Source: Acidimicrobiales bacterium (GTDB lineage Bacteria; Actinomycetota; Acidimicrobiia; Acidimicrobiales; DASSOZ01). Taken from it: a DNA stretch of 64,000 bases. Of the stretch, positions 3,658-54,307 are shown piece by piece (position 1 is the stretch's first letter; the number at the start of each line of letters is the position of its first letter). The stretch spans positions 13,605 to 77,604 of the forward strand of contig DASSOZ010000029.1 of the NCBI GenBank assembly GCA_035700105.1, in the 5' to 3' direction. The translations under genes were made by a program, and so were the position numbers. The notes beneath the pieces are model-generated. The model ran no database searches. It saw only the letters and a program-made list of their open reading frames with translations, and had not been told where the DNA came from.

Positions 3658-5725
3658 TTGCGGTTCTCAGGTCGTACGTCCCGGCGGCGTCGAGCGTGCA
3701 CGTCCAGCCGGGGGCGACGACGACGACCGTGAACGGCTCCTCGACGAGTGCGGGGCCGTCGACCGACGCGCCGGGCGCGAGGGCGGCGCCGTCGTAGACC
3801 GGCGTGTCGACCCAGCCGTCGCCGAACCACACCGGACGCGCGCCGGTGCGGGCCTGCGACGCGTCCGTGACGGTGCCGACAACCGCGAGCGCGTCGGGCT
3901 TCGGGGTGCGCCCCGACGCGGCGAGTCGCACGCCCCTCAGCAGCGGCTGCTGGTTGCGGAACGCGAACCCGCGGTCGGCCTCGTGCAGGTCGTGGAACCG
4001 GCCGGCGAGGTCGAACAGACCCGGCTCGTCGAGGCCGGCGCCGCCGTCCGGCACCGGGACGCTCATGTCCCAGTTCTGGCCCGGATAGCACATGAGCGCG
4101 TACGCGCTGCGGGTCACGTCGTCCGGCGACAGGTTGGCCGGCGCGAGCTCGTGGTCGGCCTCGTCGGCGAGCTCGGCGAACAGCTTCTTCACGCGGGCGA
4201 CGTCCACCCGCGACAGGGGGGTGACGTAGGCCCGCGTCAGGTCGATCACGTAGTCGGCGACGAGCAGGCCCAGTGCCGAGAACGCCGGCGCCGCCTTCGG
4301 CACCAGCACCCTCGAGATGCCGAGCTCGGGCGCCTGCGCCCACGCATGCACGGCGCCGTTGCCGCCGTAGGCGATCATCGCCAGATCTCGCGGGTCGGCG
4401 CCGTACTGGGCGACGACCCTGCGGACTGCGTTCGCCATGTTGGCGTTGACGATGCGCTCGATCCCCCACGCGGCGTCGACGGCGTCGAGACCGAGCGGTT
4501 CGCCGACGTCACGGGCGATCGCGGCACGGGCGGCGTCGACGTCCAGGCGCATGCGGCCGCCGGCGAACGTGTCGCCGGCCGGCAGATACCCGAGCACGGC
4601 GTCGGCGTCGGTCACCGTCGCGCGGCGACCACCCCGCCCGTAGCAGACGGGACCGGGTTGGGCGCCGGCGGACTCGGGCCCGACGAGCAGTGCGCCCTGC
4701 CGTACGGACGCGATCGACCCGCCGCCGGCCCCGACGGACTCGACGTCGACCATCGGGATCCCGATGTAGTAGCGGTACCGCCAGTTGTCGTCGGTCTTCA
4801 GCACCGGCTGCCCGTCGCGCACCAGGCAGACGTCGTACGACGTGCCGCCCATGTCGACGGCCACGAAGTCGGGCGCCCCGCTGCGGGCCGCGGCGACGGT
4901 CGAACCCATCACGCCGCCGGTCGGACCCGATGCCAGCAGCGACACCGCCCGCTTGCTGACGTACTCGGGCGGCATCACGCCACCGGTCGACTGCATGATC
5001 AGCATCTGCCCGCCGAACCCGGCGTCGCGCAGCTTGCCGGTGAGCCGCTGCGTGTACGACGCGATCCGGGGCGCGACGTACGCGTTGACGAGCGTCGTCG
5101 ACGTCCGCTCGAACTCCGGCGCCTTCGGCATCACCTCGTGTGACAGCGAGATGTGCGCGACGTCGGGGTACTCCTCGACGATCAGCTCGCGCGCCCGCAG
5201 CTCGTGCGCGGGGTTCGTGAACGAGTGCAGGAAGACGACGGCGATGGAGGTGCAGCCGAGCTTCCGCAGTCGCTGCACCCCGGCGCGCACCGCCGCCTCG
5301 TCGAGCGGCAGGACGACGTTGCCGTCGACGTCGAGGCGCTCGGGGATCGGGATGCGGGCACGCCGCCGGGCGATCGGCGGGGGAGCGGGATACGACGGGT
5401 CCCAGATCTCCTCCTTGTGCACCCGCCGCATCTCGATCTCGTCGCGGTGGCCTTCGGTGACGAGCAGCCCGGTGGGTGCACCGTCCATCTCGATCATCGT
5501 GTTGTCCGCGGTCGTCGTCCCGTGCACGAGCGCGTCGAGCTGCGCGCAGAAGTCGGACAACGAACACCCGACGTGCGTCGCCAGCAGCTCGAGCCCGTTC
5601 ATCACCCCGGCGGACTGGTCGTCGGGCGTAGTGGGCGTCTTGTCGAGGATCACCTCGCCCGACGGCGTGACGCAGATCAGGTCGGTGAACGTCCCGCCGA
5701 CATCGATGCCGACGCGAAATCCCAT
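3644..5725 (-). CDS. hyuA: hydantoinase/oxoprolinase A subunit (N-methylhydantoinase A-like)
   Basis: True start MGFRVGIDVGGTFTDL lies inside the 998-aa ORF-track entry, giving 693 aa. ATGA start/stop overlap with the upstream B subunit at 5725. Hydantoinase_A-type ATPase motifs are present (DMGGTSYDV). Confidence 0.9.
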   Translation of the reverse strand: MGFRVGIDVGGTFTDLICVTPSGEVILDKTPTTPDDQSAGVMNGLELLATHVGCSLSDFCAQLDALVHGTTTADNTMIEMDGAPTGLLVTEGHRDEIEMRRVHKEEIWDPSYPAPPPIARRRARIPIPERLDVDGNVVLPLDEAAVRAGVQRLRKLGCTSIAVVFLHSFTNPAHELRARELIVEEYPDVAHISLSHEVMPKAPEFERTSTTLVNAYVAPRIASYTQRLTGKLRDAGFGGQMLIMQSTGGVMPPEYVSKRAVSLLASGPTGGVMGSTVAAARSGAPDFVAVDMGGTSYDVCLVRDGQPVLKTDDNWRYRYYIGIPMVDVESVGAGGGSIASVRQGALLVGPESAGAQPGPVCYGRGGRRATVTDADAVLGYLPAGDTFAGGRMRLDVDAARAAIARDVGEPLGLDAVDAAWGIERIVNANMANAVRRVVAQYGADPRDLAMIAYGGNGAVHAWAQAPELGISRVLVPKAAPAFSALGLLVADYVIDLTRAYVTPLSRVDVARVKKLFAELADEADHELAPANLSPDDVTRSAYALMCYPGQNWDMSVPVPDGGAGLDEPGLFDLAGRFHDLHEADRGFAFRNQQPLLRGVRLAASGRTPKPDALAVVGTVTDASQARTGARPVWFGDGWVDTPVYDGAALAPGASVDGPALVEEPFTVVVVAPGWTCTLDAAGTYDLRTATNSA

Positions 5726-7554: not shown

Positions 7555-7572
7555 CCTGACATGAGCGTCAGG
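7555..7572. promoter_or_regulatory. 18-bp palindrome CCTGAC-ATGAGC-GTCAGG (operator candidate)
   Basis: Perfect 6-bp arms. Lies 18 nt upstream of the hyuB start, in the 48-bp gap after the LLM oxidoreductase stop. Confidence 0.6.
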
Positions 7573-9715: not shown

Positions 9716-9733
9716 CCTGACACGCGTGTCAGA
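9716..9733. promoter_or_regulatory. 18-bp palindrome CCTGAC-ACGCGT-GTCAGA (core is a perfect 16-mer CTGACACGCGTGTCAG)
   Basis: Centred in the 48-bp divergent gap between the amidohydrolase start (9694) and the thiolase start (9743). Confidence 0.65.
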
Positions 9734-10960: not shown

Positions 10961-13900
10961 GTGGAGGGCAAAGGGGGCGTCCTCGGCACCGTGTCGGTGC
11001 TGTTCACCGATCTCGTCGGGTCGACGGAGCAGCGCGTCCGCCTCGGCGAGGACGCGGCCGACGCCCTCCGTCGCGTCCACGACGAACTCGTCGGCGCCGC
11101 CGTCGTCGGCTCGGGCGGAACCGTGGTGAAGCGTCTGGGCGACGGGGTGATGGCGACGTTCCCCGCCGCCGCCGACGCGGTCGCCGCTGCCGTCGCGATC
11201 CAGCAGGCGATCGCCCGGCACGGCGCGGCGGTGACCGACCCCGGCCGGCGACTCGCCGTGCGGATCGGCCTGTCGACCGGCGACGTCATGGTCGAGGGTG
11301 ACGACGTCCACGGCACGCCCGTCGTCGAAGCGGCCCGCCTGTGCGCGAGCGCGCTGGGTGGGGAGATCCTCGCCGCCGAGCTCGTCCGCATGCTCGCCCG
11401 CTCACGCGGCGTCGCGACGTTCGAGCCGATCGGCGACGTCGAGCTCAAGGGCCTGCCCGAGCCGGTCGCGACGTGCCGCGTGCTGTGGGAGCCGGAGGCG
11501 GACGCGGGCGGCGCTCGGCCGCCGCTGCCGCCGCTCCTCGTGGGCACCCCGGCGACGGGGTACGTCGGGCGCGACGGGCTGCGGGCGACGCTCGCGGATG
11601 CGTGGCGTGGCGTCGCCGCGGGCGGGTGCCGCGCCGTCCTGCTCGCCGGCGAGCCGGGCGTGGGCAAGACCCGGACGGCCGCCGAGCTCGCCCGGCTCGC
11701 GTACGACGAGGGCGCGGTCGTGCTCTACGGCCGCTGCGACGAGGACCTCGGCGCGCCGTACCAGCCGTTCGTCGAGGCGCTCACCGCGTACGCGATGGAC
11801 GCGCCACCCGACGGGGTGCACCTCGGTCGCCTGCCGGGCGAGCTGACCCGCCTCGTCCCCGAGCTCTCCGAGATGGTCACCGGGGTGGGCGCGCCCGTGG
11901 CGTCCGATCCGCGCTCGGAGGAGTACCGCCTGTTCGAGGCGACGGCGTCGTGGCTCGTCGACGCCGGCCGGGCGAGTGGGCTGGTGCTGGTCGTCGACGA
12001 CCTCCACTGGGCGGCTCGCCCGACGCTGCAGCTGCTGCTGCACGCGCTTCGGGCCGCATCGGCGGAGCGCGACGCCCGCGTGCTGGTGGTGGGGACGTAC
12101 CGCGACACCGACATCGACCGGTCCCACCCGCTGTCGGACGTGCTCGCCGAGCTCCGGCGCCTCCCGCTCGTGTCGCGCCTCTCCGTCGACGGGCTCACCG
12201 AGGACGAGGTCGTGGCGTTCGCCGAGGTCGCGGCCGGGCACGAGCTCGACGACACCATCCGCGCCCTTGCCCGCACGGTGCACGCGGAGACCGACGGCAA
12301 CGCCTTCTTCGTCGGCGAGGTGCTGCGACACCTCGTCGAGGTCGGCGCCGTCCGCCGCGACGGCGACCGCTGGGTCGTCGCCGCGGGCGCCGTCGACGTG
12401 CCGGAGGGTGTCCGCGATGTCGTCGGCCGGCGCGTGTCGCGCCTGTCCACCGACGCCAACACCGTCCTCTCCGTCGCGGCCGTGGTCGGGCGCGAGGGCG
12501 ACCTCGACGTGGTCGCCGAGGTGGTGGACCTGCCCGAGGGCGCAGTGCTCGACGCGTTCGACGAGGGCGTGCGCGCCAGGCTGCTCGAGGAGAGCGACGT
12601 CGACCGGTACCGCTTCGCCCACGCGCTCGTGCGGACGACGCTGTACGACGAGCTGTCGGCGACCCGGCGGCGCCGGCTGCATCGACGCATCGCGGAGACG
12701 CTGGAGAAGCTGCATCGCGACGACGTGGTCGCGCTGGCCTATCACTCGTTGCAGGCGGGTCCCGACGGTGGCGACGCGACGCGCGCCGCTCGGTACTCGA
12801 TGGCTGCGGGCGACCAGGCGTTGGCGCAGCGGGCCCTGGCCGACGCCGAGGTTCGGTACCGCACCGCGCTGGAGCTCGTCGACGACAGCGGCATCGTCGA
12901 CGAGGACGTCCGGCTGCGCGCCATGTGCGGGCTGGGCGAGGCCCTGCGTGACCAGGCCCGCCCCGAATACCGCGAAACGCTCCTGCGCGCCGCCCGCGAC
13001 GCGCGGACGGCCGGCCTCACGGACCTGCTCGTGCGGGCCGTGCTGTCGAACGACCGCGGCTACGCGTCGATGATCGGGCGCGTCGACGACGAGCGGGTCG
13101 AGATGATCGAAGCCGCGCTTGCCGCCGTCGGCGACGCGCCGACCGCGGAACGCATCCGACTCGTCGCGCTGCTGTCGCAGGAGCTGTTCTTCGGGCCGCA
13201 GCGCGACCGCGCCCGCCGGCTCGGTGCCGAGGCAGAAGCACTGGCACGCGACGTCGACGACGACCGGCTCCGCTGCGAGGTCGTCATCCGCTGCGGCCTC
13301 TCGAGGATCCACCAGATCCCCTTCCCGGAGTACCTGGTACGGATCGAAGAGGGCGCGGCGATCGCCGAGCGGCTCGGCGATCCGGCCCTTCGCGTTGTCA
13401 CCGGGTTGTTCCTGTCGTCGGCACGGCTGACCGTCGGCGACGTCGACGGCGGCCGGGCCGCGGACGCGGCCAACGTTGCGGGCGCGTCGGATGGCTCGCC
13501 GTCACTCGTGTGGACGGCGAGGTCACACGCGATGAAGTGGGCGGTGGCGTGCGACCCGATCCCGGTGTCGACGGCGGCGAACGACGAGTGCCGCGACATG
13601 GGCGAGCGCGCGGGCGAGCCCGACCATCTCAACTGGTGGGCGGCGACGTTCGGCGCGATCGACATGATGCGTGCCGGCGACGTCGCCGCGCTGGCCGACG
13701 TCGCCGGCGCCTACGCGGCCGAGTACCCGGGCGCGCCCACGTGGCGGATGTTGCAGGCGCTCGCACTCGCCGACGCAGGCCGGGTCGACGAGTGCGACGC
13801 GCTGATATCGCGCCACGGCCTCGACCCCCGCCGGCTCATCGACGAGCCGTTCCCGTTCGTCGCCGCCGCGGGATGGGCACGACTCGCGCACCGCCTACGG

Positions 13901-14254
13901 CGGCCCGACATGGCGCGGGACGCCGCCGAACTGCTCACGCCGCATTCGGGGCTCTGGACGCACTTCTTCCTCGCGACCTGGGGTCCGGTCGACTACGACC
14001 TCGCGCTCTGCGCGTCGTTGCTCGGCGAGCACGACCGTGCCGTCGAGCTCGCCACCGGTGCGCTCGCGATCGTCGCCGACGCCGGGATGGTCACGCTGCG
14101 CGACCACCTGTCGCTCGGTGTCGCCGACGTACTGCGTGGCGCGGGGCACGGCGACCGCGCCCGCACGCTGCTGCGCGAGGTCGTCGACAGCACCGCGGTG
14201 ACCGGTGCCGACGGCGTGCGCGCACGGGCGCTGGCGATGCTCGGGGAGGTCTGA
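10961..14254 (+). CDS. class III adenylate/guanylate-cyclase-homology domain + P-loop STAND/AAA ATPase + TPR-like helical repeats; no DNA-binding domain seen
   Basis: N-terminus VSVLFTDLVGST...VKRLGDGVMATF (cyclase homology). Walker A LLAGEPGVGKTRTA, then VLVVDDLHWA. The long C-terminal alpha-repeat region ends without a LuxR-type HTH. Confidence 0.8.
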   Translation: MEGKGGVLGTVSVLFTDLVGSTEQRVRLGEDAADALRRVHDELVGAAVVGSGGTVVKRLGDGVMATFPAAADAVAAAVAIQQAIARHGAAVTDPGRRLAVRIGLSTGDVMVEGDDVHGTPVVEAARLCASALGGEILAAELVRMLARSRGVATFEPIGDVELKGLPEPVATCRVLWEPEADAGGARPPLPPLLVGTPATGYVGRDGLRATLADAWRGVAAGGCRAVLLAGEPGVGKTRTAAELARLAYDEGAVVLYGRCDEDLGAPYQPFVEALTAYAMDAPPDGVHLGRLPGELTRLVPELSEMVTGVGAPVASDPRSEEYRLFEATASWLVDAGRASGLVLVVDDLHWAARPTLQLLLHALRAASAERDARVLVVGTYRDTDIDRSHPLSDVLAELRRLPLVSRLSVDGLTEDEVVAFAEVAAGHELDDTIRALARTVHAETDGNAFFVGEVLRHLVEVGAVRRDGDRWVVAAGAVDVPEGVRDVVGRRVSRLSTDANTVLSVAAVVGREGDLDVVAEVVDLPEGAVLDAFDEGVRARLLEESDVDRYRFAHALVRTTLYDELSATRRRRLHRRIAETLEKLHRDDVVALAYHSLQAGPDGGDATRAARYSMAAGDQALAQRALADAEVRYRTALELVDDSGIVDEDVRLRAMCGLGEALRDQARPEYRETLLRAARDARTAGLTDLLVRAVLSNDRGYASMIGRVDDERVEMIEAALAAVGDAPTAERIRLVALLSQELFFGPQRDRARRLGAEAEALARDVDDDRLRCEVVIRCGLSRIHQIPFPEYLVRIEEGAAIAERLGDPALRVVTGLFLSSARLTVGDVDGGRAADAANVAGASDGSPSLVWTARSHAMKWAVACDPIPVSTAANDECRDMGERAGEPDHLNWWAATFGAIDMMRAGDVAALADVAGAYAAEYPGAPTWRMLQALALADAGRVDECDALISRHGLDPRRLIDEPFPFVAAAGWARLAHRLRRPDMARDAAELLTPHSGLWTHFFLATWGPVDYDLALCASLLGEHDRAVELATGALAIVADAGMVTLRDHLSLGVADVLRGAGHGDRARTLLREVVDSTAVTGADGVRARALAMLGEV

Positions 14255-18249: not shown

Positions 18250-18267
18250 CCTGACATCGGCGTCAGG
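18250..18267. promoter_or_regulatory. 18-bp palindrome CCTGAC-ATCGGC-GTCAGG (operator candidate)
   Basis: Perfect arms. Lies in the divergent gap between the SDR-ADH operon (start 18228) and the Asp/His-rich protein gene (start 18330). Confidence 0.6.
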
Positions 18268-18893: not shown

Positions 18894-19505
18894 TCAGTGG
18901 GACAGGTTGTCGCGGGCCCAGAGGGCGGCCTGGGTCCGGTCGGTCACGCCGAGCTGCTGGAAGATGTTCGTGAGGTGCGCCTTGACCGTGCGCTCGGTGA
19001 TCGAGAGGCGGCGGGCGATCTGCTTGTTCGCCAGACCCTCGGCCACCAGCGCCAGCACCTCCCGCTCGCGGTCGCTCAGGCGTCGCGCCGGCCCGCCGAC
19101 CCGCCGGCGCTCGAGCAGCACCCGTGCGGCCTTCGGGTCGAGCGGCACGTCGCCCGCCGCCGCGGCCCGGACGGCCGCCAGCACCTCGTCGGGCGTCGCG
19201 TCCTTGAGGATGTAGCCGCACGCGCCGGCGTCGAGCGCGTCGACGATGCGGCGTTCGTCGGCGAACGACGTCAGCACGACGACCCGGGCACCTTCGCCGA
19301 TGCGGCGCGTCGCTTCCACCCCGTCGACGCCGGGCATGGACAGGTCCATGAGGACGACGTCGGGTGCCGTCGACGTGACCAGCTCGACGGCCTCGTCGCC
19401 GTCACCGGCGGTGCCGACGACGTCGACGTCGTCGGCGCTCCCGAGGAGCTGCGCCAGTCCCTGCCGGACGACGGCGTGGTCGTCCACGACGAGAACCCGG
19501 ATCAC
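18894..19505 (-). CDS. NarL/LuxR-family two-component response regulator
   Basis: Receiver motifs VLVVDDHAVVRQGL and DVVLMDLSMPGVDG. C-terminal LuxR HTH LSDREREVLALVAEGLANKQIARRLSITERTVKAH. Confidence 0.9.
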   Translation of the reverse strand: MIRVLVVDDHAVVRQGLAQLLGSADDVDVVGTAGDGDEAVELVTSTAPDVVLMDLSMPGVDGVEATRRIGEGARVVVLTSFADERRIVDALDAGACGYILKDATPDEVLAAVRAAAAGDVPLDPKAARVLLERRRVGGPARRLSDREREVLALVAEGLANKQIARRLSITERTVKAHLTNIFQQLGVTDRTQAALWARDNLSH

Positions 19506-20833
19506 GACAGCGGCACCTCCATCCGCACGAGCGTCCCTCGACCGGGCGCGGCGTCGACCGTCAGCGTCGCGCCCGCGTCACGGGCGAGGCCGGCGAGTCC
19601 CCGCAGGCCGAGGTGCCCGGACGACGCCGCCGACGCGGCGTCCTCGGGGGAGAAGCCGGCCCCGTCGTCGGTCACGGACACGCATGCCCGCTCGGCGTCG
19701 CTCTCGGCGACGACCGCCACGGACGTCGCGCCGGCGTGGGCGGCGACGTTGCGGAGCGCCTCGCGGGCGGTGCGGTAGAGCAGCGCACGCGCCGACGCCG
19801 GCAGCTCGTCGGACGCCAGACGCTCGGTGTCGAGTGACACCGACACGCCGGTCGCGGCGACGCCGTCGGCCAGGTCGGCGAGCGCGGCCGCCACGCCGCC
19901 GGGGCCGTCGAGGTCGGCCGGGTAGATGTCGACGAGCATCGAGCGCAGTTCGGTGATCGTCGACCGGATCGATCCGGCCGCGGAGTCGAGCAGCGTCGAC
20001 GCCGGTGTTCCCGCCACGGACGCGTCCCGCGCCGCGCCCGCCAGGCTGAACGCGACGCCGGCCAGCGCCTGCACCGGTCCGTCGTGGAGATCGGACGCGA
20101 CGCGGCGGCGCTCGATGTCGGACGCGTCGAGCGCCCGCCGCAGCAGCGCTTCCTGGACGCGCTGGCGGTGCTGGAGCCGCCGGGCCAGCGACCACGCCAG
20201 CGGGATCTGGAGCACCTCGAGCAGGACGAGCGCGCCGAGCGAGATCGGGGCGAAGCTGCGCCAGATCCTCGATCCCGAGGCCGCGACCGTGTCGTAGCGG
20301 TAGTACGCCTCGAACAGCAGGCGGTCGCCGCCGGGCGTCACGATCGGCAGGTACACCTCGAGCAGCTTCCCGAACGAACGCTCGAACCGGTTCTCGGGCT
20401 TGGTGAGGTCGCTGACCTCGGCTTCGATGAGGCCACCCCGCAGCGCGGCGAGCTCGTCGTCGCCCAGCGCGTAGCGCGCACCGACGAGGCGACGTTCGTC
20501 GGAGTAGACGATCTCGCCGGTGGACGTCCAGATCTTCACCCGCACGAGCGAGTCGTCGAGGACGTCGCGCTCGACGACGTCGCCGACGCTTCGCACGGCG
20601 TCCGGGTCGCGCGCGACGAGCCCGTCGGTGATGACGGGCTCGACACGACCCTGGGCTTTCACGAGCGTCGTCGTGCGTGCATCGGTGATCGCCTCGCGCT
20701 CGCCGACGCGCCGGCTGGCGACCGACGTGGCGGCGCCGACGAGGGCGACGGCGGCGAGCCCGATGAGCGTGAACTGCACGACGGGCCGGGCGACGACCCA
20801 TCGCAACGACGACGGTGTGCTCGCCCCGGTCAT
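19502..20833 (-). CDS. sensor histidine kinase (HisKA_3 / NarX-DesK type) with extracytoplasmic sensor domain
   Basis: N-terminal TM segment, then a ~170-aa loop and a second TM segment. H-box RRRVASDLHDGPVQ. ATPase region GFSPEDAA...GHLGLRGL. 4-nt overlap with the response regulator gene. Confidence 0.85.
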   Translation of the reverse strand: MTGASTPSSLRWVVARPVVQFTLIGLAAVALVGAATSVASRRVGEREAITDARTTTLVKAQGRVEPVITDGLVARDPDAVRSVGDVVERDVLDDSLVRVKIWTSTGEIVYSDERRLVGARYALGDDELAALRGGLIEAEVSDLTKPENRFERSFGKLLEVYLPIVTPGGDRLLFEAYYRYDTVAASGSRIWRSFAPISLGALVLLEVLQIPLAWSLARRLQHRQRVQEALLRRALDASDIERRRVASDLHDGPVQALAGVAFSLAGAARDASVAGTPASTLLDSAAGSIRSTITELRSMLVDIYPADLDGPGGVAAALADLADGVAATGVSVSLDTERLASDELPASARALLYRTAREALRNVAAHAGATSVAVVAESDAERACVSVTDDGAGFSPEDAASAASSGHLGLRGLAGLARDAGATLTVDAAPGRGTLVRMEVPLS

Positions 20834-20852
20834 CGGGGGAGCAGGTTAGGGA

Positions 20853-21209
20853 TCAGCGGATGACCGTCTTGCCGGGCTCGTAGCGGAAGTCGAACTTCTC
20901 GCCGGTGTCCCGGTTCTCGAACCGGATCTCGACACGGTTCTTGTCGCTGGCGGAGGTGCCGCCGGCGGACTTCACCTGGTACGTCCAGCCGGGTTGCACG
21001 TTCGTGACGGCGACGAGGCGGATGCCGACGGACGTGTCGAGCACGACGCAGGCGACACCGTCCAGCGGGTAGTTCCACGGGTTGGTCGACATGTCCCAGC
21101 TGCACGGCAGCTCCGCGGACGCGGGTGCGGCGGTGGCGAGCGGCACGCCGGCGACGGCGGCCGCGATCGTGACGGAGGCGAGGGTGCGACGGATGCGGTG
21201 TCGGTTCAT
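20853..21209 (-). CDS. small secreted protein (118 aa), hypothetical
   Basis: ATG 21209 gives MNRHRIRRTLASVTIAAAVAGVPLATAAPASA, a signal peptide. The mature part has 2 Cys. It lies immediately upstream of, and co-oriented with, the kinase gene. Confidence 0.6.
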   Translation of the reverse strand: MNRHRIRRTLASVTIAAAVAGVPLATAAPASAELPCSWDMSTNPWNYPLDGVACVVLDTSVGIRLVAVTNVQPGWTYQVKSAGGTSASDKNRVEIRFENRDTGEKFDFRYEPGKTVIR

Positions 21210-21259
21210 GCCGGCGACTGTGCGGTCCACCCGGTCGGGCCGGCCAGTGTCCGATGGTG

Positions 21260-23281
21260 CTACGACCTCATCGGCCGGAGGTCGAGCCGGCGGAGCAGCT
21301 GGGCGTTCAGCGCGACGACGATCGTCGACAGGCTCATGAGCACGGCGCCGACCGCGGGCGGCAGCGTGAAGCCCGCCCACGCGAGCGCGCCGGCGGCGAG
21401 CGGGATGGCGACGACGTTGTAGCCGGCGGCCCAGCCGAGGTTCTGCAGCATCTTGCGGTAGCTCGCCTGGCTGAGGCGGATCACCGACACGACCGCGCGG
21501 GGGTCGGAGCTGGCGAGGATGACGCCGGCCGACTCGATGGCGACGTCGGTGCCAGCGCCGATGGCGAGGCCGACGTCGGCCCGCGCCAGCGCGGGCGCGT
21601 CGTTGACGCCGTCGCCGACCATCGCCACCTTCAGGCCACGTCGCTGCAGCTCGGCGACCTTGGCGTCCTTGTCCTCGGGCAGGACCTCGGCCATCACCTC
21701 GTCGACGCCGAGATCGGCACCGACCGCGTCGGCGACCTGCCGTGCGTCACCGGTGATCATCACGACGCGCCGGCCCATCGCCCGCAGGTCGTGGACGGCC
21801 TGACGCGCCTCGGGACGGACCTCGTCCTCGAGCTCGAACGCGGCGACGACATCGTCGCCACGGACGAGGTAGAGGACGGCCGCACCTCGCTTTCGCCACA
21901 CGTCGGCGTCGGCGGTGAGGGCGGCCGGTTCGTCGAGCCCGCGTTCGCGCAGCAGCGCGGGCCCGCCGACGGCGTGGCGCGTGCCGTCGATCGTCGCCTC
22001 GACACCGCGGCCGGTGATCGACCGGAAGTCGGACGCCGAGGGAGCCGCGGTCGCGGACGTCACCGCGCTGGCGCGCACGATGGCGCGCGCCAGCGGGTGC
22101 TCGGAGTCGGCCTCGACGGCGGCGGCGAGGTGGAGCGCGTCGTCAGTCGTCAGCGCACCGGTCGTGGCCACACCGGTGACGGCGTGCTCACCCTTCGTCA
22201 GGGTGCCGGTCTTGTCGAACAGCACGGTGTCGACAGTGCGCATGCGCTCGAGCGCGAGGCGGTCCTTCACCAGGATGCCGGCGCGGGCGCCGATCGCCGA
22301 CGACAGCGACACCACGAGCGGGATGGCGAGGCCGAGCGCGTGCGGGCAGCTGATGACGAGGACGCCGACGGTGAGCAGCACCGCCCGGTCGGCGTCGCCC
22401 GCCGCCAGCCACGCGACGAGCGTGATGACCGCGGCGCCGGCGGCGACGTAGAAGAGCAGCGCGGCGGCGCGGTCGGCAAGCGCCTGGGCGCGGCTGCGGC
22501 TCTCCTGGGCCTGGGTCACGAGACGCTGGATGCCGGCGAGCGCGGTGTCCTCGCCGACGGCGTCGACACGGACGCGGATCGCCGAGTCGGTCGACACCGT
22601 GCCGGCGACGACGCGATCGCCCGTGGTCTTGGCGACCGGGCGCGACTCGCCGGTGATCATCGACTCGTCGAGCTCGGCGCGCCCGTCGACGATCTCGCCG
22701 TCGGCCGGGACCCGGCCGCCGCTACGGACGAGGACCGTGTCACCGGCGCGCAGGTCGTTGAGCGCGACGGTCTCGGTCGTCCCGTCGGAGGCCAGGCGCT
22801 CGGCCTCGTCAGGGAGCAGCGCGGCGAGCGCGCCGAGCGCGTCCTGCGCCTGGCCGAGCGCCTTCATCTCCTGCCAGTGCCCGAGCAGCATGATCGTCAC
22901 CAGTGCGGCGAGCTCCCACCAGAACTCCTGGTCGAACCAGTCGAGCGAGTTGGCGAGCGACGCGCCGTACGCCACGGTCAGGGCCATCGCGATCAGCAGC
23001 ATCATGCCGGGCCGTCGCGTGCGGGCCTCGTCGACGCCACCGGTGAGGAACGGCCAGCCCGCCCACAGGAACACGACGGTGCCGAGCACCGGCCCGACCC
23101 ACTCGATGCCGGCGAAGTCGAGCTCGTAGCCGAGCCAGTCCATGACCATCTCGCTCGTGACGACGATCGGGACGGTGAGCAGCAGGCTCCACCAGAAGCG
23201 CGTCCGGAACACCGCGGCGTGGTCGGCGTGCCCGTGATGGCCGTGGTGCCCGTGATCGTGATCGTGCCCGTCGTGTTCCAT
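21260..23281 (-). CDS. heavy-metal (copper) P1B-type ATPase, CopB-like
   Basis: TGES, the CPH transmembrane metal motif (ISCPHALG), DKTGTLT and GDGVNDAP. His-rich N-terminus MEHDGHDHDHGHHGHHGHADH replaces an HMA domain. Confidence 0.9.
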   Translation of the reverse strand: MEHDGHDHDHGHHGHHGHADHAAVFRTRFWWSLLLTVPIVVTSEMVMDWLGYELDFAGIEWVGPVLGTVVFLWAGWPFLTGGVDEARTRRPGMMLLIAMALTVAYGASLANSLDWFDQEFWWELAALVTIMLLGHWQEMKALGQAQDALGALAALLPDEAERLASDGTTETVALNDLRAGDTVLVRSGGRVPADGEIVDGRAELDESMITGESRPVAKTTGDRVVAGTVSTDSAIRVRVDAVGEDTALAGIQRLVTQAQESRSRAQALADRAAALLFYVAAGAAVITLVAWLAAGDADRAVLLTVGVLVISCPHALGLAIPLVVSLSSAIGARAGILVKDRLALERMRTVDTVLFDKTGTLTKGEHAVTGVATTGALTTDDALHLAAAVEADSEHPLARAIVRASAVTSATAAPSASDFRSITGRGVEATIDGTRHAVGGPALLRERGLDEPAALTADADVWRKRGAAVLYLVRGDDVVAAFELEDEVRPEARQAVHDLRAMGRRVVMITGDARQVADAVGADLGVDEVMAEVLPEDKDAKVAELQRRGLKVAMVGDGVNDAPALARADVGLAIGAGTDVAIESAGVILASSDPRAVVSVIRLSQASYRKMLQNLGWAAGYNVVAIPLAAGALAWAGFTLPPAVGAVLMSLSTIVVALNAQLLRRLDLRPMRS

Positions 23282-23298
23282 CGGGACGACTCTATACT

Positions 23299-23315
23299 AT
23301 ACCCCCCCAGGGTAT
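23299..23315. promoter_or_regulatory. G/C-tract palindrome ATACCC-CCCCA-GGGTAT (CsoR-type operator-like), overlapping a TATAGT -10-like box
   Basis: Sits in the 33-bp gap directly upstream of the ATPase start. On the minus strand the sequence reads GATACCCTGGGGGGGTATAGTATAGAGTCGTCCCG-ATG. Confidence 0.5.
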
Positions 23316-23686
23316 CAAGCGGGGGAGGGTCGGAGGCGGCGGCGGCGCGACGGCGGCACGTCGACCGTCTCGTGCACCCGCGTCACGCCACGGGTCGCCC
23401 GCGCCAGGTCGACGGCGGCGTCGCGGGCCGCGGCCGGCGCCGTGCCCGTCAACCGGGCGACGCCGTCCACGACGGATACGGCGAGCGTCGCGGCCCGCGT
23501 TCGCGTGTCCGCCGCCAGCGACGCCCGTAGCCGGAGCTCCGCCCGTGCGTCGTCGAGCGACCCGCCCCGCACGAGCGACGACGCCGACCGCCCGGCGAAG
23601 TGCGCCCAGTCGGCGATCGACGCACGGTTGCGCCACGCCCACATGGCGAGGCCGAGGCGGGAAAGGGGGAGCAGGCGACGGAGCAT
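23315..23686 (-). CDS. BON-domain protein
   Basis: 123 aa with an N-terminal hydrophobic segment and the BON-like pattern LAVSVVDGVARLTGTAPAAARDAAVDLARATRGVTRVHETVDV. Confidence 0.55.
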   Translation of the reverse strand: MLRRLLPLSRLGLAMWAWRNRASIADWAHFAGRSASSLVRGGSLDDARAELRLRASLAADTRTRAATLAVSVVDGVARLTGTAPAAARDAAVDLARATRGVTRVHETVDVPPSRRRRLRPSPA

Positions 23687-23704
23687 GTGACCGCCTGTTC
23701 CCTC

Positions 23705-23710
23705 TACGGT
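23705..23710 (+). promoter_or_regulatory. -10-like hexamer TACGGT, 8 nt upstream of ATG 23719 (leaderless arrangement)
   Basis: Read directly in the sequence. No SD lies in the 8-nt gap. Confidence 0.4.
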
Positions 23711-23718
23711 CTGCGGCC

Positions 23719-24144
23719 ATGCCGCTCGAGCTCGTACCGCTGGCCACGATCCGCGCCCCGCTGACGGCGCAGCACGTCATCGCCAAGGGACCGCTCGGCA
23801 CCCGCGTGATCGCCGACGTGACCGACGCGACGATCGACGGCGACCGCATCCACGCCAAGCAGCTCGGCACCGCCGGCGCCGACTGGGCGACGATCGACGA
23901 CAACGGCGTCTGCACGCTCGACGTGCGCATGACGATGCAGACCGACGACGGCGCCACGCTGTTGGTGACGTACCGCGGCCGGCTCCTGCTCGACACCGGC
24001 GACATCTACAGCGCGCCGCTGTTCGAGACCGGCGACGAGCGCTACCAGTGGCTCAACCGCATCCAGGCCGTGGGCAAGGGCCGCATCCAGGCGTCCGACG
24101 ACGGTGCCCAGTCGGTCGTCTACGAGGTGTTCGAGCTGCGCTGA
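23719..24144 (+). CDS. DUF3237-family protein
   Basis: 141 aa. The pattern GPLGTRVIADVTDATIDGDRI...GADWATIDDNGVCTLDVRMTMQTDDGATLLVTYRG matches the DUF3237 beta-barrel family as I remember it. Confidence 0.65.
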   Translation: MPLELVPLATIRAPLTAQHVIAKGPLGTRVIADVTDATIDGDRIHAKQLGTAGADWATIDDNGVCTLDVRMTMQTDDGATLLVTYRGRLLLDTGDIYSAPLFETGDERYQWLNRIQAVGKGRIQASDDGAQSVVYEVFELR

Positions 24145-24229: not shown

Positions 24230-25429
24230 TTACCGCTTCGGCAGGCGGATGGCGCGGTCGGCGATGATGTTCTTCTGCACCTCGGTCGTGCCGGCGCCGA
24301 TCGACGTGTAGCGCTGCCAGGTGTACTGGTGCGTCCAGTGCCCGCCGTCGACCGCGTCGGGACCGCCCTTGGCGAGCACGCCGGCGGGACCGAGCAGGTC
24401 GACGCCGAGCTCGGCGAGCGTCTGGCTGAGGTGTGACCACTGCAGCTTGGCGAACGGCACCTCGGGCCAGTTCTTCTCACCCTTGAGGATCTTCGACAGC
24501 GCCCGGTAGTTGAGCAACTGCGTCAGCCGGATCTGCGTCCACGCCTCGGCGATGCGGGCGCGCAGCAGCGGGTCGGCGAGCGCGGACGGGTTGTGCTTCC
24601 GCGCGGTGTCGATCATCTGTTGCAGTTCGATCTTGAGCGTGATCGACAGGCCCGACGTCCCGACGCGCTCGTGGCCGAGCGTGCCCATCGCGACCTGCCA
24701 CCCGGCACCCTCGTCGCCGAGGCGGTACCTCACCGGGACGCGTGCGTCGGTGAAGAACACCTCGTTGAACATCGCGTCGCCGGTGATCTCACGGATGGGG
24801 CGGCACTCGATGCCATCGGCGTGCATGTCGACGATGAGCGCGGTGATGCCGTCGTGCTTGCGGCCGTCGGCCAGTGCGGACGGATCCGTCCGCACGAGGA
24901 ACAGGCCCCAGTCGGCGATGTGCGCGGTGGAGATCCAGATCTTCTGCCCGTTGACGACGTAGTCGTCGCCGTCGCGGACCGCGACCGTCCGCAGGTTGGC
25001 GAGGTCGCTCCCGGCCTCGGGTTCGGTGAAGCCCTGACACCAGTGCTCGTCGGCGTTGAGGATCTTCGGCAGCCACCGCTGCTGCTGCTCGGCGGTGCCC
25101 CAGCGCACGATCATGGGGCCGATCTGCCAGATGCCGTTGGCGTTGTAGATGCCCGGCGTCTTCGCCCGCGCCATCTCCTCTGAGTAGATGACGTTCTGCA
25201 TGACGGTGGCCTCGCGGCCGCCCCACTCCTTCGGCCAGTTGATCGCCGCCCAGTTGCCGGTGTTGAGCTCGCGCTGCCACGCCTTGCGCCGCTCCATCGT
25301 GCGCAGCAGGCCCGTGGACGTGCCGTCGCCGATCTCGCCCTGCTCGTTGAACGCCGGCAGGTGCTCGTCGAGCCACGAGCGCAGTTCCGCCCGGAACGCC
25401 TCGTCTTCCGGCGTGAAGGAGAAGTCCAT
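24230..25429 (-). CDS. acyl-CoA dehydrogenase
   Basis: 399 aa with WCQGFTEPEAGSDLANL, WISTAHIADWG and C-terminal IGAGTTEVQKNIIADRAIRLP. Confidence 0.9.
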   Translation of the reverse strand: MDFSFTPEDEAFRAELRSWLDEHLPAFNEQGEIGDGTSTGLLRTMERRKAWQRELNTGNWAAINWPKEWGGREATVMQNVIYSEEMARAKTPGIYNANGIWQIGPMIVRWGTAEQQQRWLPKILNADEHWCQGFTEPEAGSDLANLRTVAVRDGDDYVVNGQKIWISTAHIADWGLFLVRTDPSALADGRKHDGITALIVDMHADGIECRPIREITGDAMFNEVFFTDARVPVRYRLGDEGAGWQVAMGTLGHERVGTSGLSITLKIELQQMIDTARKHNPSALADPLLRARIAEAWTQIRLTQLLNYRALSKILKGEKNWPEVPFAKLQWSHLSQTLAELGVDLLGPAGVLAKGGPDAVDGGHWTHQYTWQRYTSIGAGTTEVQKNIIADRAIRLPKR

Positions 25430-25434
25430 CGTTT

Positions 25435-25452
25435 GCTGACGCTAGCGTCAGG
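25435..25452. promoter_or_regulatory. 18-bp palindrome GCTGAC-GCTAGC-GTCAGG containing two divergent TAGCGT -10-like boxes
   Basis: Fills the centre of a 28-bp gap between the divergent ACAD starts at 25429 and 25458. TAGCGT occupies 25443-25448 on the plus strand and 25444-25439 on the minus strand, each 9 nt from its ATG. Confidence 0.65.
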
Positions 25453-25457
25453 GTCGT

Positions 25458-26573
25458 ATGGACTTCACGTTCTCGCCGGAGCAGGAGGACCTCCGCGCCG
25501 CCGTCCGTCAGACGCTCGAGCGAGAGGCGGGTCCTGCCTACGTGCGCCGCATGATGGACGACGATCGCGGTGTCGACGAGGGCCTGTGGCGGACGTTCGC
25601 CGACCTCGGTTGGCTCGGTGTGCTCGTACCCGCCGAACACGGCGGACTCGGGCTCGGTCTCGTCGACGCCGTGGTGGTGCAGCAGGAGATGGGACGGCTG
25701 CCGCTGCCCGGTCCGTACTTCTCGTCGGCCGTGCTCGCCACACTGGCGGCTCGCGCGCTGGGCGCCGACGCGTTGCTGGGGGGCCTCGCGTCAGGCGCCC
25801 GCCGCGGGACGCTCGCGGTGGAGGAATGGGGGAGCGGCGACCCGCTCGACGCCGTGGCCACGACGGCGACGCGTTCGTCGTCGGGCGACACATGGGTCCT
25901 GGACGGCCTCAAGCCCCTCGTCCTGGACGCGCACGTCGCCGACTGGGCGATCGTCGTCGCCCGCGACACGTCCGTCGACGGCGACGGCGGGCTCGCCGGG
26001 TTCCTCGTGGAGTCACCGGCGGCGCATGCGACCGTCGTTCCCGCGCTCGACGTCACCCGCAAGACGTGCCGGCTCGAGCTCGACGGTGTGACGGCGACGC
26101 GCCTCGGTCCGCCGGGCGACCAGCGCGCGCTGTGGCGCCGCGTGCTCGACGATGCAGCGATCGCGCTGTGCGCGGAGACACTCGGCGCGTGCGAGGCGGC
26201 GCAGGCGATGGCCGTCGACTACGCCACGCACCGCGTGCAGTTCGACCGCCCGATCGGGTCGTTCCAGGTCATCCGACACAAGCTCGTCGACATGCTCCAC
26301 GAGATCACGCTCGCCCAGGTCGGCGTGCACTGGGCGGCGTGGGCGTCCGACGTCGACGACCCCGAGCGGGAGCACGCGGCGGCGATGTGCAAGTCGTTCG
26401 TCGGCGCGGCGTCGGTGTTCGTCACGGCCGAGAACATCCAGGTGCACGGCGGCGTCGGATTCACATGGGACGTCGACGCCCACCTCTACTACCGGCGCGT
26501 GAAGCAGAACGACGCGCTCCTCGGTCCGACCGGCTGGCAGCGGGCGCGTCTCGCCGACCTCGTTCTTGACTAG
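25458..26573 (+). CDS. acyl-CoA dehydrogenase family protein
   Basis: 371 aa with MDFTFSPEQEDLR and YATHRVQFDRPIGSFQVIRHKL. The C-terminal-domain pattern includes IQVHGGVGFTWD. Confidence 0.85.
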   Translation: MDFTFSPEQEDLRAAVRQTLEREAGPAYVRRMMDDDRGVDEGLWRTFADLGWLGVLVPAEHGGLGLGLVDAVVVQQEMGRLPLPGPYFSSAVLATLAARALGADALLGGLASGARRGTLAVEEWGSGDPLDAVATTATRSSSGDTWVLDGLKPLVLDAHVADWAIVVARDTSVDGDGGLAGFLVESPAAHATVVPALDVTRKTCRLELDGVTATRLGPPGDQRALWRRVLDDAAIALCAETLGACEAAQAMAVDYATHRVQFDRPIGSFQVIRHKLVDMLHEITLAQVGVHWAAWASDVDDPEREHAAAMCKSFVGAASVFVTAENIQVHGGVGFTWDVDAHLYYRRVKQNDALLGPTGWQRARLADLVLD

Positions 26574-26612: not shown

Positions 26613-27779
26613 ATGGGGACGAACCACCTTCTCGACGCGGCGCGCAAGCTCGCGCCGGAGCTGAGCGAGCGGGCGCTCGAGGCGGAGCAGCAGCGCACGC
26701 TGCCGATCGATCTGGTCGACCGGGCGCGGGGGGCCGGCCTGTTCCACCTGGCGATGCCCGCGGCGCTCGGCGGCCACGAGAGCGACCCGATCACGATCTT
26801 CGAGGTGATCGAGGAGCTGTCCCGCGCCGACGGGTCGGCCGGCTGGACGGTCTTCATCGGCAACTCGACGGCGTTCGTCGCCTGGCTCGAACCGGAGGTC
26901 GCCAAGGAGATCGTCGCGTCGCGCCCCGACTTCATCACGACCGGCGTCTTCGCGCCGACCGGCACGGCGCGGCCGTCCGGCGACAGCGACGGCGCCTACG
27001 TCGTCGACGGCCGGTGGACGTTCAACAGCGGCTGCCCGCACGCCGACTGGTTCATGAACGGCGTCGTCGTCATGGACGGCGACGCGCCGCGCATGGTCGG
27101 TGACCGACCCGACTGGCGGTTCGCGTTCTACCCGGCGTCCGACGGCGAGATCATCGACACGTGGCACGTCGCCGGCCTGCGCGGGACCGGCAGCCACGAC
27201 ACGACCGCAGCCGGTGTTCGCGTGCCGATCGAGCGGACGATCGCCCCGTTCTTCGAGCCCGCGAAGTTCGACGGGCCGCTGTACCGCGTGCCGTTCGCGT
27301 CGATGCTCACGACGTTCCTCGCGGCGTTCCCGCTCGGCGTCGCCCGTCGCGCGCTCGACGAGTTCGCGGCACTGTCGCTGACGAAGGCGCGCATCGCCGG
27401 GCCCGGTGCCGTCATGGCGGAGGACGAGGCGGTGCAGGTCGAGCTGGCGCGCGCCGAGGCGACGGTCCGATCGGCTCGCGCGTACGTGATCGACGCCCTC
27501 GGCGACGCGTACGACACTGCTGTCGCCGGTGGCGAGGTGTCGATGCAGCAGCGTGCGGCGACCCTGATGGCGACCATGCACGCCGCACGGTCGGCCCGGA
27601 CCGCGACAGATTCCGTCTTCGCCATGAGCGGCGGAGGGGCGCTCTACGACTCGAGCCCGCTGCAGCGCTGCATGCGGGATCTCGTCGCCGGGACGCAGCA
27701 CCTCTTCTACAACATCAACCGGTGGAAGACGATCGCCCGCGTCCAGCTCGGGATGGACCCGGCGACGTTCATGATCTGA
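26613..27779 (+). CDS. acyl-CoA dehydrogenase type-2 / flavin-dependent monooxygenase-like protein (HsaA/DszC-like)
   Basis: 388 aa with LPIDLVDRARGAGLFHLAMPAALGG, SRADGSAGWTV and WTFNSGCPHADWF. SD AAGGGGGG lies upstream of the ATG. Confidence 0.7.
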   Translation: MGTNHLLDAARKLAPELSERALEAEQQRTLPIDLVDRARGAGLFHLAMPAALGGHESDPITIFEVIEELSRADGSAGWTVFIGNSTAFVAWLEPEVAKEIVASRPDFITTGVFAPTGTARPSGDSDGAYVVDGRWTFNSGCPHADWFMNGVVVMDGDAPRMVGDRPDWRFAFYPASDGEIIDTWHVAGLRGTGSHDTTAAGVRVPIERTIAPFFEPAKFDGPLYRVPFASMLTTFLAAFPLGVARRALDEFAALSLTKARIAGPGAVMAEDEAVQVELARAEATVRSARAYVIDALGDAYDTAVAGGEVSMQQRAATLMATMHAARSARTATDSVFAMSGGGALYDSSPLQRCMRDLVAGTQHLFYNINRWKTIARVQLGMDPATFMI

Positions 27780-32752: not shown

Positions 32753-32770
32753 TCTGACGTTCGTGTCAGT
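32753..32770. promoter_or_regulatory. 18-bp palindrome TCTGAC-GTTCGT-GTCAGT (operator candidate)
   Basis: Lies in the 63-bp divergent gap between the SDR-ACAD-Ltp operon (start 32733) and the OYE-type reductase (start 32797). Confidence 0.6.
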
Positions 32771-37304: not shown

Positions 37305-37322
37305 CCTGACGTACACGTCACA
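37305..37322. promoter_or_regulatory. 18-bp palindrome CCTGAC-GTACAC-GTCACA (right arm degenerate)
   Basis: Lies in the 59-bp divergent gap between WS/DGAT (start 37278) and MaoC (start 37338). It sits between the TTGAAA -35-like box (37299-37304) and the TATGGT -10-like box (37324-37329). Confidence 0.55.
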
Positions 37323-41348: not shown

Positions 41349-41366
41349 CCTGACACGACCGTCAGG
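41349..41366. promoter_or_regulatory. 18-bp palindrome CCTGAC-ACGACC-GTCAGG (operator candidate)
   Basis: Perfect arms. Lies 44 nt upstream of GTG 41411. Confidence 0.6.
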
Positions 41367-52650: not shown

Positions 52651-52668
52651 AATGACGTGCGTGTCAGG
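52651..52668. promoter_or_regulatory. 18-bp palindrome AATGAC-GTGCGT-GTCAGG (left arm degenerate)
   Basis: Lies 18 nt upstream of ATG 52632 of SBP paralog 2. Confidence 0.5.
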
Positions 52669-54289: not shown

Positions 54290-54307
54290 CCTGACGTCCG
54301 TGTCAGG
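54290..54307. promoter_or_regulatory. 18-bp palindrome CCTGAC-GTCCGT-GTCAGG (operator candidate)
   Basis: Perfect arms. Lies 17 nt upstream of GTG 54272. The right arm contains the stop codon of the upstream MFS gene. Confidence 0.6.

Follow-up and report, generated by a model that had tools for sequence, protein, structure and literature searches.

We analyzed the 28-bp gap between two divergent acyl-CoA dehydrogenase (ACAD) genes on contig DASSOZ010000029.1 of an Acidimicrobiales bacterium. The window, i.e., the whole stretch of DNA analyzed, comprised 64,000 nucleotides, and all positions refer to it. The gap carried a perfect palindrome belonging to a motif family of the window and a predicted −10 hexamer on each strand. 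The features of the locus were as follows.

24230–25429, minus strand: ACAD gene, 399 aa, predicted alpha-type (catalytic) subunit; ATG at 25429–25427; three Pfam ACAD domains; best PDB matches 4x28_A and 6wy8_B.
25430–25457: divergent ACAD–ACAD intergenic region, 28 bp, the whole predicted regulatory unit.
25433–25454: predicted extended operator footprint, 22 bp, after the family consensus from a symmetrised profile of 60 sites.
25436–25451: putative operator core, perfect palindrome CTGACGCTAGCGTCAG, 16 bp, centred at 25443.5.
25439–25444, minus strand: predicted −10 hexamer TAGCGT of the 399-aa gene, sharing TA with the plus-strand hexamer.
25443–25448, plus strand: predicted −10 hexamer TAGCGT of the 371-aa gene, with CGC before it and 9 nt to the ATG; the sole plus-strand TAnnnT in 25300–25600.
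25458–26573, plus strand: ACAD gene, 371 aa, predicted beta-type subunit; ATG at 25458; ACAD by Pfam; best PDB matches 6wy8_A and 4x28_D.

The start codons at 25429 (minus strand) and 25458 (plus strand) are indeed separated by 28 bp, as the preliminary description of this gap had claimed; the sequence reads ...gaagtcCAT (25427–29), cgtttg, CTGACGCTAGCGTCAG, ggtcgt, ATG (25458–60), gacttc. That description also placed an 18-bp palindrome midway between the starts, 5 nt from each. The centre (25443.5) is exactly that of the gap; however, the perfect palindrome is 16 bp and not 18 bp long because G25435 and G25452 are unpaired, and 6 nt separate it from each ATG. TAGCGT followed by 9 nt and the ATG was confirmed on each strand, at 25443–25448 (plus) and 25444–25439 (minus). 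The gap was also said to be the most compact arrangement of its kind in the window, and it is: five divergent gene pairs shared one site each, with gaps of 28, 48, 59, 60, and 63 bp. The intergenic sequence was identical in three other public contigs (L081–L083).

The Pfam ACAD N-domain started at residue 6 in both the 399-aa and the 371-aa protein. Independent gene calls on four public contigs gave identical 399-aa and 371-aa proteins with the same 28-bp gap, and tblastn alignments to orthologues (up to 80 loci) began at residue 1 for both ACADs. The central CTAG (25442–25445) places a TAG stop in frame, five codons ahead of each start, and bounds the two reading frames symmetrically; therefore, neither can be extended. 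Taken together, the Pfam domains, gene calls, tblastn alignments, and stop codons show that neither start codon is mis-assigned, which the preliminary description had named as a possible refutation of its own proposal.

The two proteins shared 28% identity and were encoded by adjacent divergent genes in 44 loci. The 399-aa protein matched 4x28_A over the full length (E 1e-58) and also Tcur3483 (6wy8_B), while the 371-aa protein matched Tcur3481 (6wy8_A, E 1e-36) and 4x28_D (E 3e-23). The chains of 4x28, which we take to be the structure of ChsE4–ChsE5 (FadE26–FadE27), have 400 aa and 373 aa, and each protein of the window matched one of them. The HERV glutamate of the 399-aa protein, aligned to chain residue 247, is presumably the catalytic base. 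This protein also kept the GFTEPEAGSD signature, which was degenerate in the 371-aa protein; both the catalytic glutamate and the signature motif were present only in the 399-aa member of the pair. Entry 6wy8, labelled Tcur3481/Tcur3483 in PDB, is taken to be the Thermomonospora curvata heterotetramer described in a review. ChsE4–ChsE5 and the T. curvata enzyme each form an alpha2beta2 heterotetramer, in which the catalytic glutamate and the flavin ring site lie on the alpha chain only and the heterotetramer is needed for activity (PMC10925408, PMC8399759). Homology thus suggests that the divergent genes most likely encode two subunits of one alpha2beta2 ACAD, and such pairing could account for strict co-regulation. 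The symmetry of the gap agrees with it: its two sides have the −10 hexamer, the 9-nt spacing to the ATG, and the first nine coding bases (ATGGACTTC) in common. The 399-aa ACAD was up to 77% identical to its closest relatives, which came nearly all from metagenome-assembled genomes with the label Acidimicrobiales or Acidimicrobiia or a broader one (Actinomycetes or Actinomycetota).

The length of the palindrome lends no support of its own. Perfect palindromes with arms of at least 8 bp numbered 15 in the window, which has 72% G+C, against 6.6 in Markov simulations; 16-bp palindromes are common here, and rarity was dropped as evidence. What makes the observation more than chance is membership in a motif family. 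The motif TGACRNNNNYGTCA occurred in 11 copies in the window versus 0.35 expected, and a scan of the window with a position weight matrix returned 11 sites of 23–28 bits, all of them intergenic, with the next best at 10.7 bits. The site of the ACAD/ACAD gap, with 26.1 bits, is typical of the family. The symmetrised profile, built from 60 sites of the window and of related loci, gave the consensus A-n-C-C-TGAC-R-nnnn-Y-GTCA-G-G-n-T. The TGAC and GTCA arms were conserved as sequence across the sites and the centre varied freely; the flanks, which lay outside the search pattern, had A or T at ±4 in 61% of the sites (1.3 bits). The right flank of the gap site, GGGT, matched the consensus. The other ten copies of the putative operator were located as follows.

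34–47: between an ACAD gene (401 aa) and a Usp gene.
550–563: upstream of an AMP-dependent ligase gene.
7557–7570: upstream of a hydantoinase B/A operon.
9718–9731: perfect 16-bp palindrome CTGACACGCGTGTCAG, between Amidohydro_2 and thiolase genes.
18252–18265: upstream of an SDR-ADH operon.
32755–32768: between SDR and OYE flavin oxidoreductase genes.
37307–37320: between WS/DGAT and MaoC-type dehydratase genes.
41351–41364: upstream of a gene for a 471-aa protein of unknown function.
52653–52666: 20 nt upstream of a solute-binding lipoprotein gene.
54292–54305: 19 nt upstream of a second solute-binding protein gene.

The genes adjacent to the sites encoded ACADs, thiolases, an acyl-CoA ligase, a hydantoinase A/B pair, an Amidohydro_2 enzyme, SDRs, an OYE flavin reductase, a WS/DGAT, a MaoC dehydratase, a Usp, and two solute-binding proteins. 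Database look-ups returned no exact match for the WS/DGAT and the solute-binding proteins. The latter are tandem paralogous lipoproteins (51094–52632 and 52707–54272, both on the minus strand), each with an operator copy 19–20 nt upstream and a G-rich Shine–Dalgarno sequence; Peripla_BP_6 was found by Pfam scan in one of the two. Two perfect palindromes longer than that of the gap were found in coding DNA: GCCGACGACGTCGACGTCGTCGGC (24 bp, 19413–19436) in a response-regulator gene and GTGCGGACGGATCCGTCCGCAC (22 bp, 24874–24895) in the 399-aa ACAD gene. Extrapolated from the simulations for arms of at least 8 bp, their chance occurrence should be rare.

The predicted −10 hexamers at 25443–48 (plus) and 25444–39 (minus) overlap in ACGCTAGCGT, sharing TA, and CGC precedes TAGCGT on both strands. 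In 25300–25600, TA occurred just three times and TAnnnT once per strand; both TAnnnT copies were in the palindrome centre, and no alternative TAnnnT was found within ~130 bp on either strand. TAGCGT also stood 7–8 nt ahead of the OYE and SDR start codons of the window, and seven site-adjacent window genes had TAnnnT with 7–9 nt to the start; the 9-nt gap is therefore within the local norm. The region upstream of the 399-aa gene, cagcaaacgATG, lacked a Shine–Dalgarno sequence. An E. coli-type sigma-70 scan of 25200–25700 gave no match, as expected for promoters without a −35 element. Mycobacterial promoters lack a conserved −35, and in M. tuberculosis TANNNT is located 7–12 bp upstream of 73% of primary transcription start sites, with CGN before the hexamer in 45% of extended cases (PMC3898074). 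The −35 regions had been proposed to lie inside the neighbour's coding sequence, and the geometry bears this out: they would fall within its first codons. The distance between the two ATGs is 29 bp; it would be 23 bp between starts placed at the optimal 7 bp past each hexamer.

We compared this organization with that of related loci. The divergent 399-aa/371-aa pair was conserved in 44 Acidimicrobiia loci with gaps of 27–248 bp, and the motif recurred upstream of ACAD orthologues across Acidimicrobiia, its 14-mer beginning anywhere from −19 to −60. TAnnnT was present 6–9 nt upstream of the start of the 399-aa gene in 41 of the 44 pairs (P about 1e-104 at a background rate of 0.23% per position set), with a spacing of 6 nt in 6 loci, 7 nt in 16, 8 nt in 16, and 9 nt in 3. 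The most telling control for the promoter interpretation is L007, a locus of a Microthrixaceae genome with 75% protein identity and, independently, the same compact layout; no other orthologous pair was as compact. Its 27-bp gap, ggcaaagCTGACACTAGTGTCAGgtac, has a central CTAG that yields TAGTGT on both strands, 7 nt from one ATG and 10 nt from the other. CTAG occurred only 9 times in the whole window. It formed the centre of the two compact ACAD/ACAD sites (window and L007), and these were the only two of the 60 sites with this centre. The −10 boxes and leaderless starts predicted in the preliminary description are supported by the 41 orthologous pairs, the seven window genes, the sole TAnnnT, and L007.

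The operator and promoter were combined in other ways at other loci. In L001, L004, L028, L034, and others, a half-site variant GTTAG was followed by TGT or TCT, giving TAGTGT or TAGTCT 7–9 nt before the start; in genes with leaders, the −10 abutted the site (TAGTGTGAC, TAGACTGAC, TACTCTGAC). The ACAD/ACAD gap of L024 (5761–6000) and L049 (5753–6000) had grown to 240–248 bp by tandem repeats, with the unit ggttgctgggtcgag in L049 and a ~65-bp unit in L024. Acidimicrobiaceae-type loci (L054, L066, L069, L071, L073–L077, and L080, upstream of 6001) had a leader of ~35 nt with a GGGGG Shine–Dalgarno sequence before the 371-aa gene. These loci conserved GCGWCAGTGTAGAC; read on the opposite strand, this element is a TACACT −10, and a degenerate operator copy overlaps it.

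Among 86 reading frames adjacent to sites in 80 loci, the only regulator was a TetR-family protein encoded in L003. Its gene was divergent from an acyl-CoA ligase gene and had a leaderless ATG and a TAGCGT −10, with the motif a further 16 nt upstream of this hexamer. The protein was nearest by sequence to Bacillus FadR (YsiA), Mce3R, and generic TetR helix-turn-helix regions, and had 2937 homologues at E ≤ 1e-20, of which the named ones were nearly all from Acidimicrobiales. In at least three lineages (L003, L092–95, and the P0064 context), the TetR gene was located 2.7–5 kb from the divergent ACAD399/ACAD~371 pair. It was the sole regulator gene called in the clusters L092, L096, L098, L100, and L101, where its neighbours encoded acyl-CoA ligases, P450, Amidohydro_2, and MaoC proteins. 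A strong site was found in the TetR gene's own or operon promoter in 8 of 12 distinct TetR loci. A site lay 16–18 nt upstream of the gene's own −10 in L003, L085, L092, and L101, and on the promoter of a P450/ligase–TetR operon, with the conserved unit CTGACGnnnnTGTCATATACAGT, 9 nt, and ATG, in L096, L098, L100, and L101. L092 contained four strong sites in 10.6 kb, one of them 110 bp upstream of the TetR gene. A metagenome scan with the TetR protein returned 7 loci with mixed results. Supported by the synteny with the ACAD pair and by the sites in TetR promoters of relatives, we consider it probable that the gap site is read by a TetR-family protein of this clade, conserved across Acidimicrobiales.

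Two further arrangements were observed at TetR-linked loci. A fused operator–promoter unit, CTGACGnnnnTGTCATATAC(AGT), preceded the P450/acyl-CoA-ligase–TetR operon in several Acidimicrobiales lineages, namely in L092 (2977), L098 (2042), L100 (4238), and L101 (4558); its right half-site is TGTCAT in place of TGTCAG and in L100 is followed by 9 nt and the ATG. In another lineage (L013, L014, L017, L019–L022, L025, L029, and L057, at ~4900–4950), the 399-aa ACAD gene was located downstream of a D-2-hydroxyacid-dehydrogenase-like gene. The operator of these loci lay between the latter (−10 CATTAT, AGGAGG leader) and a divergent sugar-kinase-like gene, and a TetR homologue with 48–50% identity was encoded ~2 kb further upstream.

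In our interpretation, the 28-bp gap is likely a complete two-way promoter with a shared repressor operator, through which both genes would be switched together. The arms cTGAC...GTCAg and flanks, 22 bp in total, would be one operator copy for a dimeric helix-turn-helix repressor encoded outside the window and controlling a dispersed lipid/steroid-type catabolic regulon in Acidimicrobiia. The variable operator centre, which reads CGCTAGCG in the gap, would supply a CGN-TAGCGT −10 to each strand. When the repressor is absent, RNA polymerase would load on CGCTAGCG in either orientation and start transcription at each ATG or up to 3 nt upstream of it, so that two leaderless or nearly leaderless mRNAs result. 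Since the hexamers share TA, only one of the open complexes could exist at a time. A repressor bound to 25433–25454, as one dimer or two, would cover both −10 elements and both start points and turn both subunit genes off, and an acyl-CoA-type ligand may release it, by analogy with FadR- and KstR-type TetR regulators.

Several observations weigh against this interpretation. The left flank of the gap site, TTGC, matched the consensus only in part. A weak AGGG stood 4 nt ahead of the ATG of the 371-aa gene, most orthologues of which had Shine–Dalgarno leaders. The 9-nt distance from hexamer to ATG is at the upper end of the range, being found in 3 of 41 orthologues, and an optimal 7-bp start would give 2–3-nt leaders; transcription may start 0–3 nt upstream of the ATG instead of on it. 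With regard to the regulator, neither the window nor the 7.8 kb to its left contained a TetR gene or homologue. A site was missing upstream of four close TetR homologues (L086, L087, L088, and L090/91), and twelve more distant homologues beside ACAD loci had none at their own starts.

The absence of a TetR gene from the window and the homologues without an upstream site would also suit the same architecture with another reader, such as a NarL/LuxR-type response regulator (18894–19505), a GntR/FadR-type protein, or another dimeric regulator. The NarL-type regulator and its kinase are encoded 600 bp from the site at 18252, and a 16-bp 7-2-7 palindrome also suits GerE-type dimers. We regard such a reader as unlikely, although it deserves more weight than the explanations considered below: in the five TetR-linked clusters no other regulator was called, and it was the promoter of the TetR gene or of its operon that carried sites. 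As readers of the motif, the NarL-type regulator and kinase of the window were rejected, since their own neighbours (P-type ATPase, BON, DUF3237) had no sites. A CRP/FNR-type site (TGTGA-N6-TCACA, TTGAT-N4-ATCAA) does not fit either. The TGA-N8-TCA spacing of the motif is 2 bp wider than TGA-N6-TCA of CRP, no CRP-like enrichment was found in the window, and the positions vary.

The position of the sites also bears on the sign of regulation. In the window, site centres lay between −1.5 and −59.5, counted from the start codon, and at −70.5 for one further flanking gene. The sites covered the start point, −10, spacer, or −35 region; they overlapped the −35/spacer region of leaderless genes or abutted the −10 of leadered ones. 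Such variable placement is repressor-like, since an activator would need a fixed position, and it fits a repressor operator. Promoters without a recognisable −35 and some sites centred near −35 to −40 could be explained by an activator recruiting RNA polymerase to weak promoters; however, some sites lie on the −10 and start point, where activation is impossible, and the gap site itself overlies both −10 hexamers, which makes this explanation highly improbable. Scarcely more probable is that promoters lie further upstream inside the neighbour's coding region and that the palindrome, not being part of the core promoter, acts as an RNA hairpin or a roadblock in the 5′ leader. A 6-bp stem with a 4-nt loop can form (−5.3 kcal/mol folded as DNA, z = −2.5), and both the AGGG before the plus-strand ATG and the leaders of most 371-aa gene orthologues would agree with it. 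On the other hand, the central TAnnnT is the only one within ~130 bp upstream of either start, the minus-strand gene lacks a Shine–Dalgarno sequence, the arms are kept as TGAC/GTCA and not merely as complementarity while the centre is free, and at many leaderless genes the motif stands upstream of the −10 and is hence untranscribed. A functionless chance palindrome in GC-rich DNA, for which the abundance of 16-bp palindromes in the window speaks, is refuted for practical purposes by the enrichment and matrix scan of the 11-copy, all-intergenic family, by the conservation of the motif at the orthologous position across Acidimicrobiia, and by the identical gap sequence in three other contigs.

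The closest functional analogue of the proposed two-way promoter and operator is the mycobacterial KstR regulon. KstR (Rv3574) is likewise a dimeric TetR repressor with a short palindrome, often between divergent lipid-catabolic genes, and regulates its own gene; its regulon includes alpha2beta2 fadE26/fadE27, Ltp-type thiolases, acyl-CoA ligases, and HsaA-type oxygenases (PMC1995591), and the genes of the window are similar in kind. However, the KstR operator is TnnAACnnGTTnnA (AC-N2-GT), in contrast to cTGAC-N6-GTCAg of the window family, and no match to the KstR motif was found in the window. The candidate TetR scored 24.9 bits against a KstR model cutoff of 280 and is not orthologous. In M. 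tuberculosis, fadE26 and fadE27 have the same orientation within one operon, whereas the pair of the window is divergent.

Regarding the promoter, the closest analogue is bidirectional promoters arising from −10 symmetry. In E. coli PacrA/acrR, a pseudo-symmetric promoter with a shared −10 region gives divergent mRNAs, both repressed by TetR-family AcrR (PMC12825309). One product there is the repressor itself, whereas the pair of the window probably encodes two partner subunits, and its gap measures 28 bp in all. The PacrA/acrR mRNAs are not described as leaderless, and the intergenic region is much longer. More generally, opposite-strand −10 elements overlap in such promoters; starts 18 bp apart, with near-complete overlap of the hexamers, are commonest, and 29, 23, 12, 10, and 7 bp are also enriched (Warman/Grainger; bioRxiv 10.1101/2020.01.31.928960; PMC12825309). 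The hexamers of the window share TA, which by our calculation is the layout for starts 23 bp apart. The known cases come from mapped transcription start sites, whereas that of the window is predicted from sequence. Juxtaposed divergent promoters with both mRNAs leaderless, TANNNT often after CGN, and no conserved −35 are also known for M. tuberculosis prpD/Rv1129c; however, these genes form a regulator and target pair, and no single palindrome with both −10s is described for them (PMC3898074).

The TetR-family regulators RutR (TTGACCAnnTGGTCAA; PMC2475637) and McbR (TAGAC-N6-GTCTA; PMC2723105) recognise 16-bp palindromes with the same GAC-N6-GTC geometry. They differ in flanking and inner bases and in their unrelated regulons (pyrimidine and sulphur metabolism), and their similarity to the candidate TetR is within the helix-turn-helix region only. 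Operators of BkaR (GTTA-N-T-N4-A-N-TAAC) and Mce3R (non-palindromic) did not match the motif. The DosR-type box GGGAC-N4-GTCCC, considered for the Usp, DGAT, and ATPase genes, gave 3 near-matches versus 8.8 expected, none at promoters.

Our literature search found no description of the motif or of both −10s inside one operator between two leaderless genes, and no paper on gene regulation in Acidimicrobiia, a mostly uncultured soil and water lineage. Every ingredient and principle of the gap design is already known; what may be particular is their combination, with both mRNAs leaderless, both −10s in the free spacer of one operator, partner subunits as products, and only 28 bp. The analysis predicts a candidate regulator–operator pair and regulon for Acidimicrobiia. 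It also points to a natural 28-bp cassette with, apparently, two promoters, one operator, and no untranslated leaders. Such a cassette would be a small test bed for the choice of direction by RNA polymerase at symmetric −10s, for the silencing of both directions by one repressor, and for the balancing of two subunits by leaderless mRNAs, as well as a possible compact two-output part for high-GC hosts. A broader scenario is that the Acidimicrobiales TetR clade runs a large lipid/steroid-type regulon with the operator fused to leaderless promoters in several ways, i.e., the half-site GTTAG+TNT supplies the −10, the flanks abut the −10, or, as in the gap, the spacer supplies both −10s. The 28-bp unit would then have evolved for balanced alpha/beta expression of an obligate heterotetramer from two leaderless mRNAs. 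We propose this scenario tentatively and hold it to be possible rather than probable.

Downstream of the 371-aa gene lies the following feature.

26613–27779, plus strand: HsaA/Rv3094c-like group-D flavin monooxygenase gene, ACAD fold; PDB matches 7f70 (Rv3094c, E 6e-52) and 2rfq (3-HSA hydroxylase oxygenase).

These two matches ruled out a third ACAD at this position. The gene is probably in one operon with the 371-aa beta-type ACAD gene. Directly downstream of the site-regulated thiolase gene, a protein of ~1100 aa (10961–14254, plus strand) was encoded; it combined an adenylate/guanylate cyclase domain at the N-terminus with an AAA_16 ATPase domain. A stress-type cluster at 18894–24144, which probably represents a separate regulon, contained no TGAC-N6-GTCA sites and encoded the NarL-type response regulator, a HisKA_3 kinase, a 118-aa protein, a P-type ATPase, a BON-domain protein, and DUF3237.

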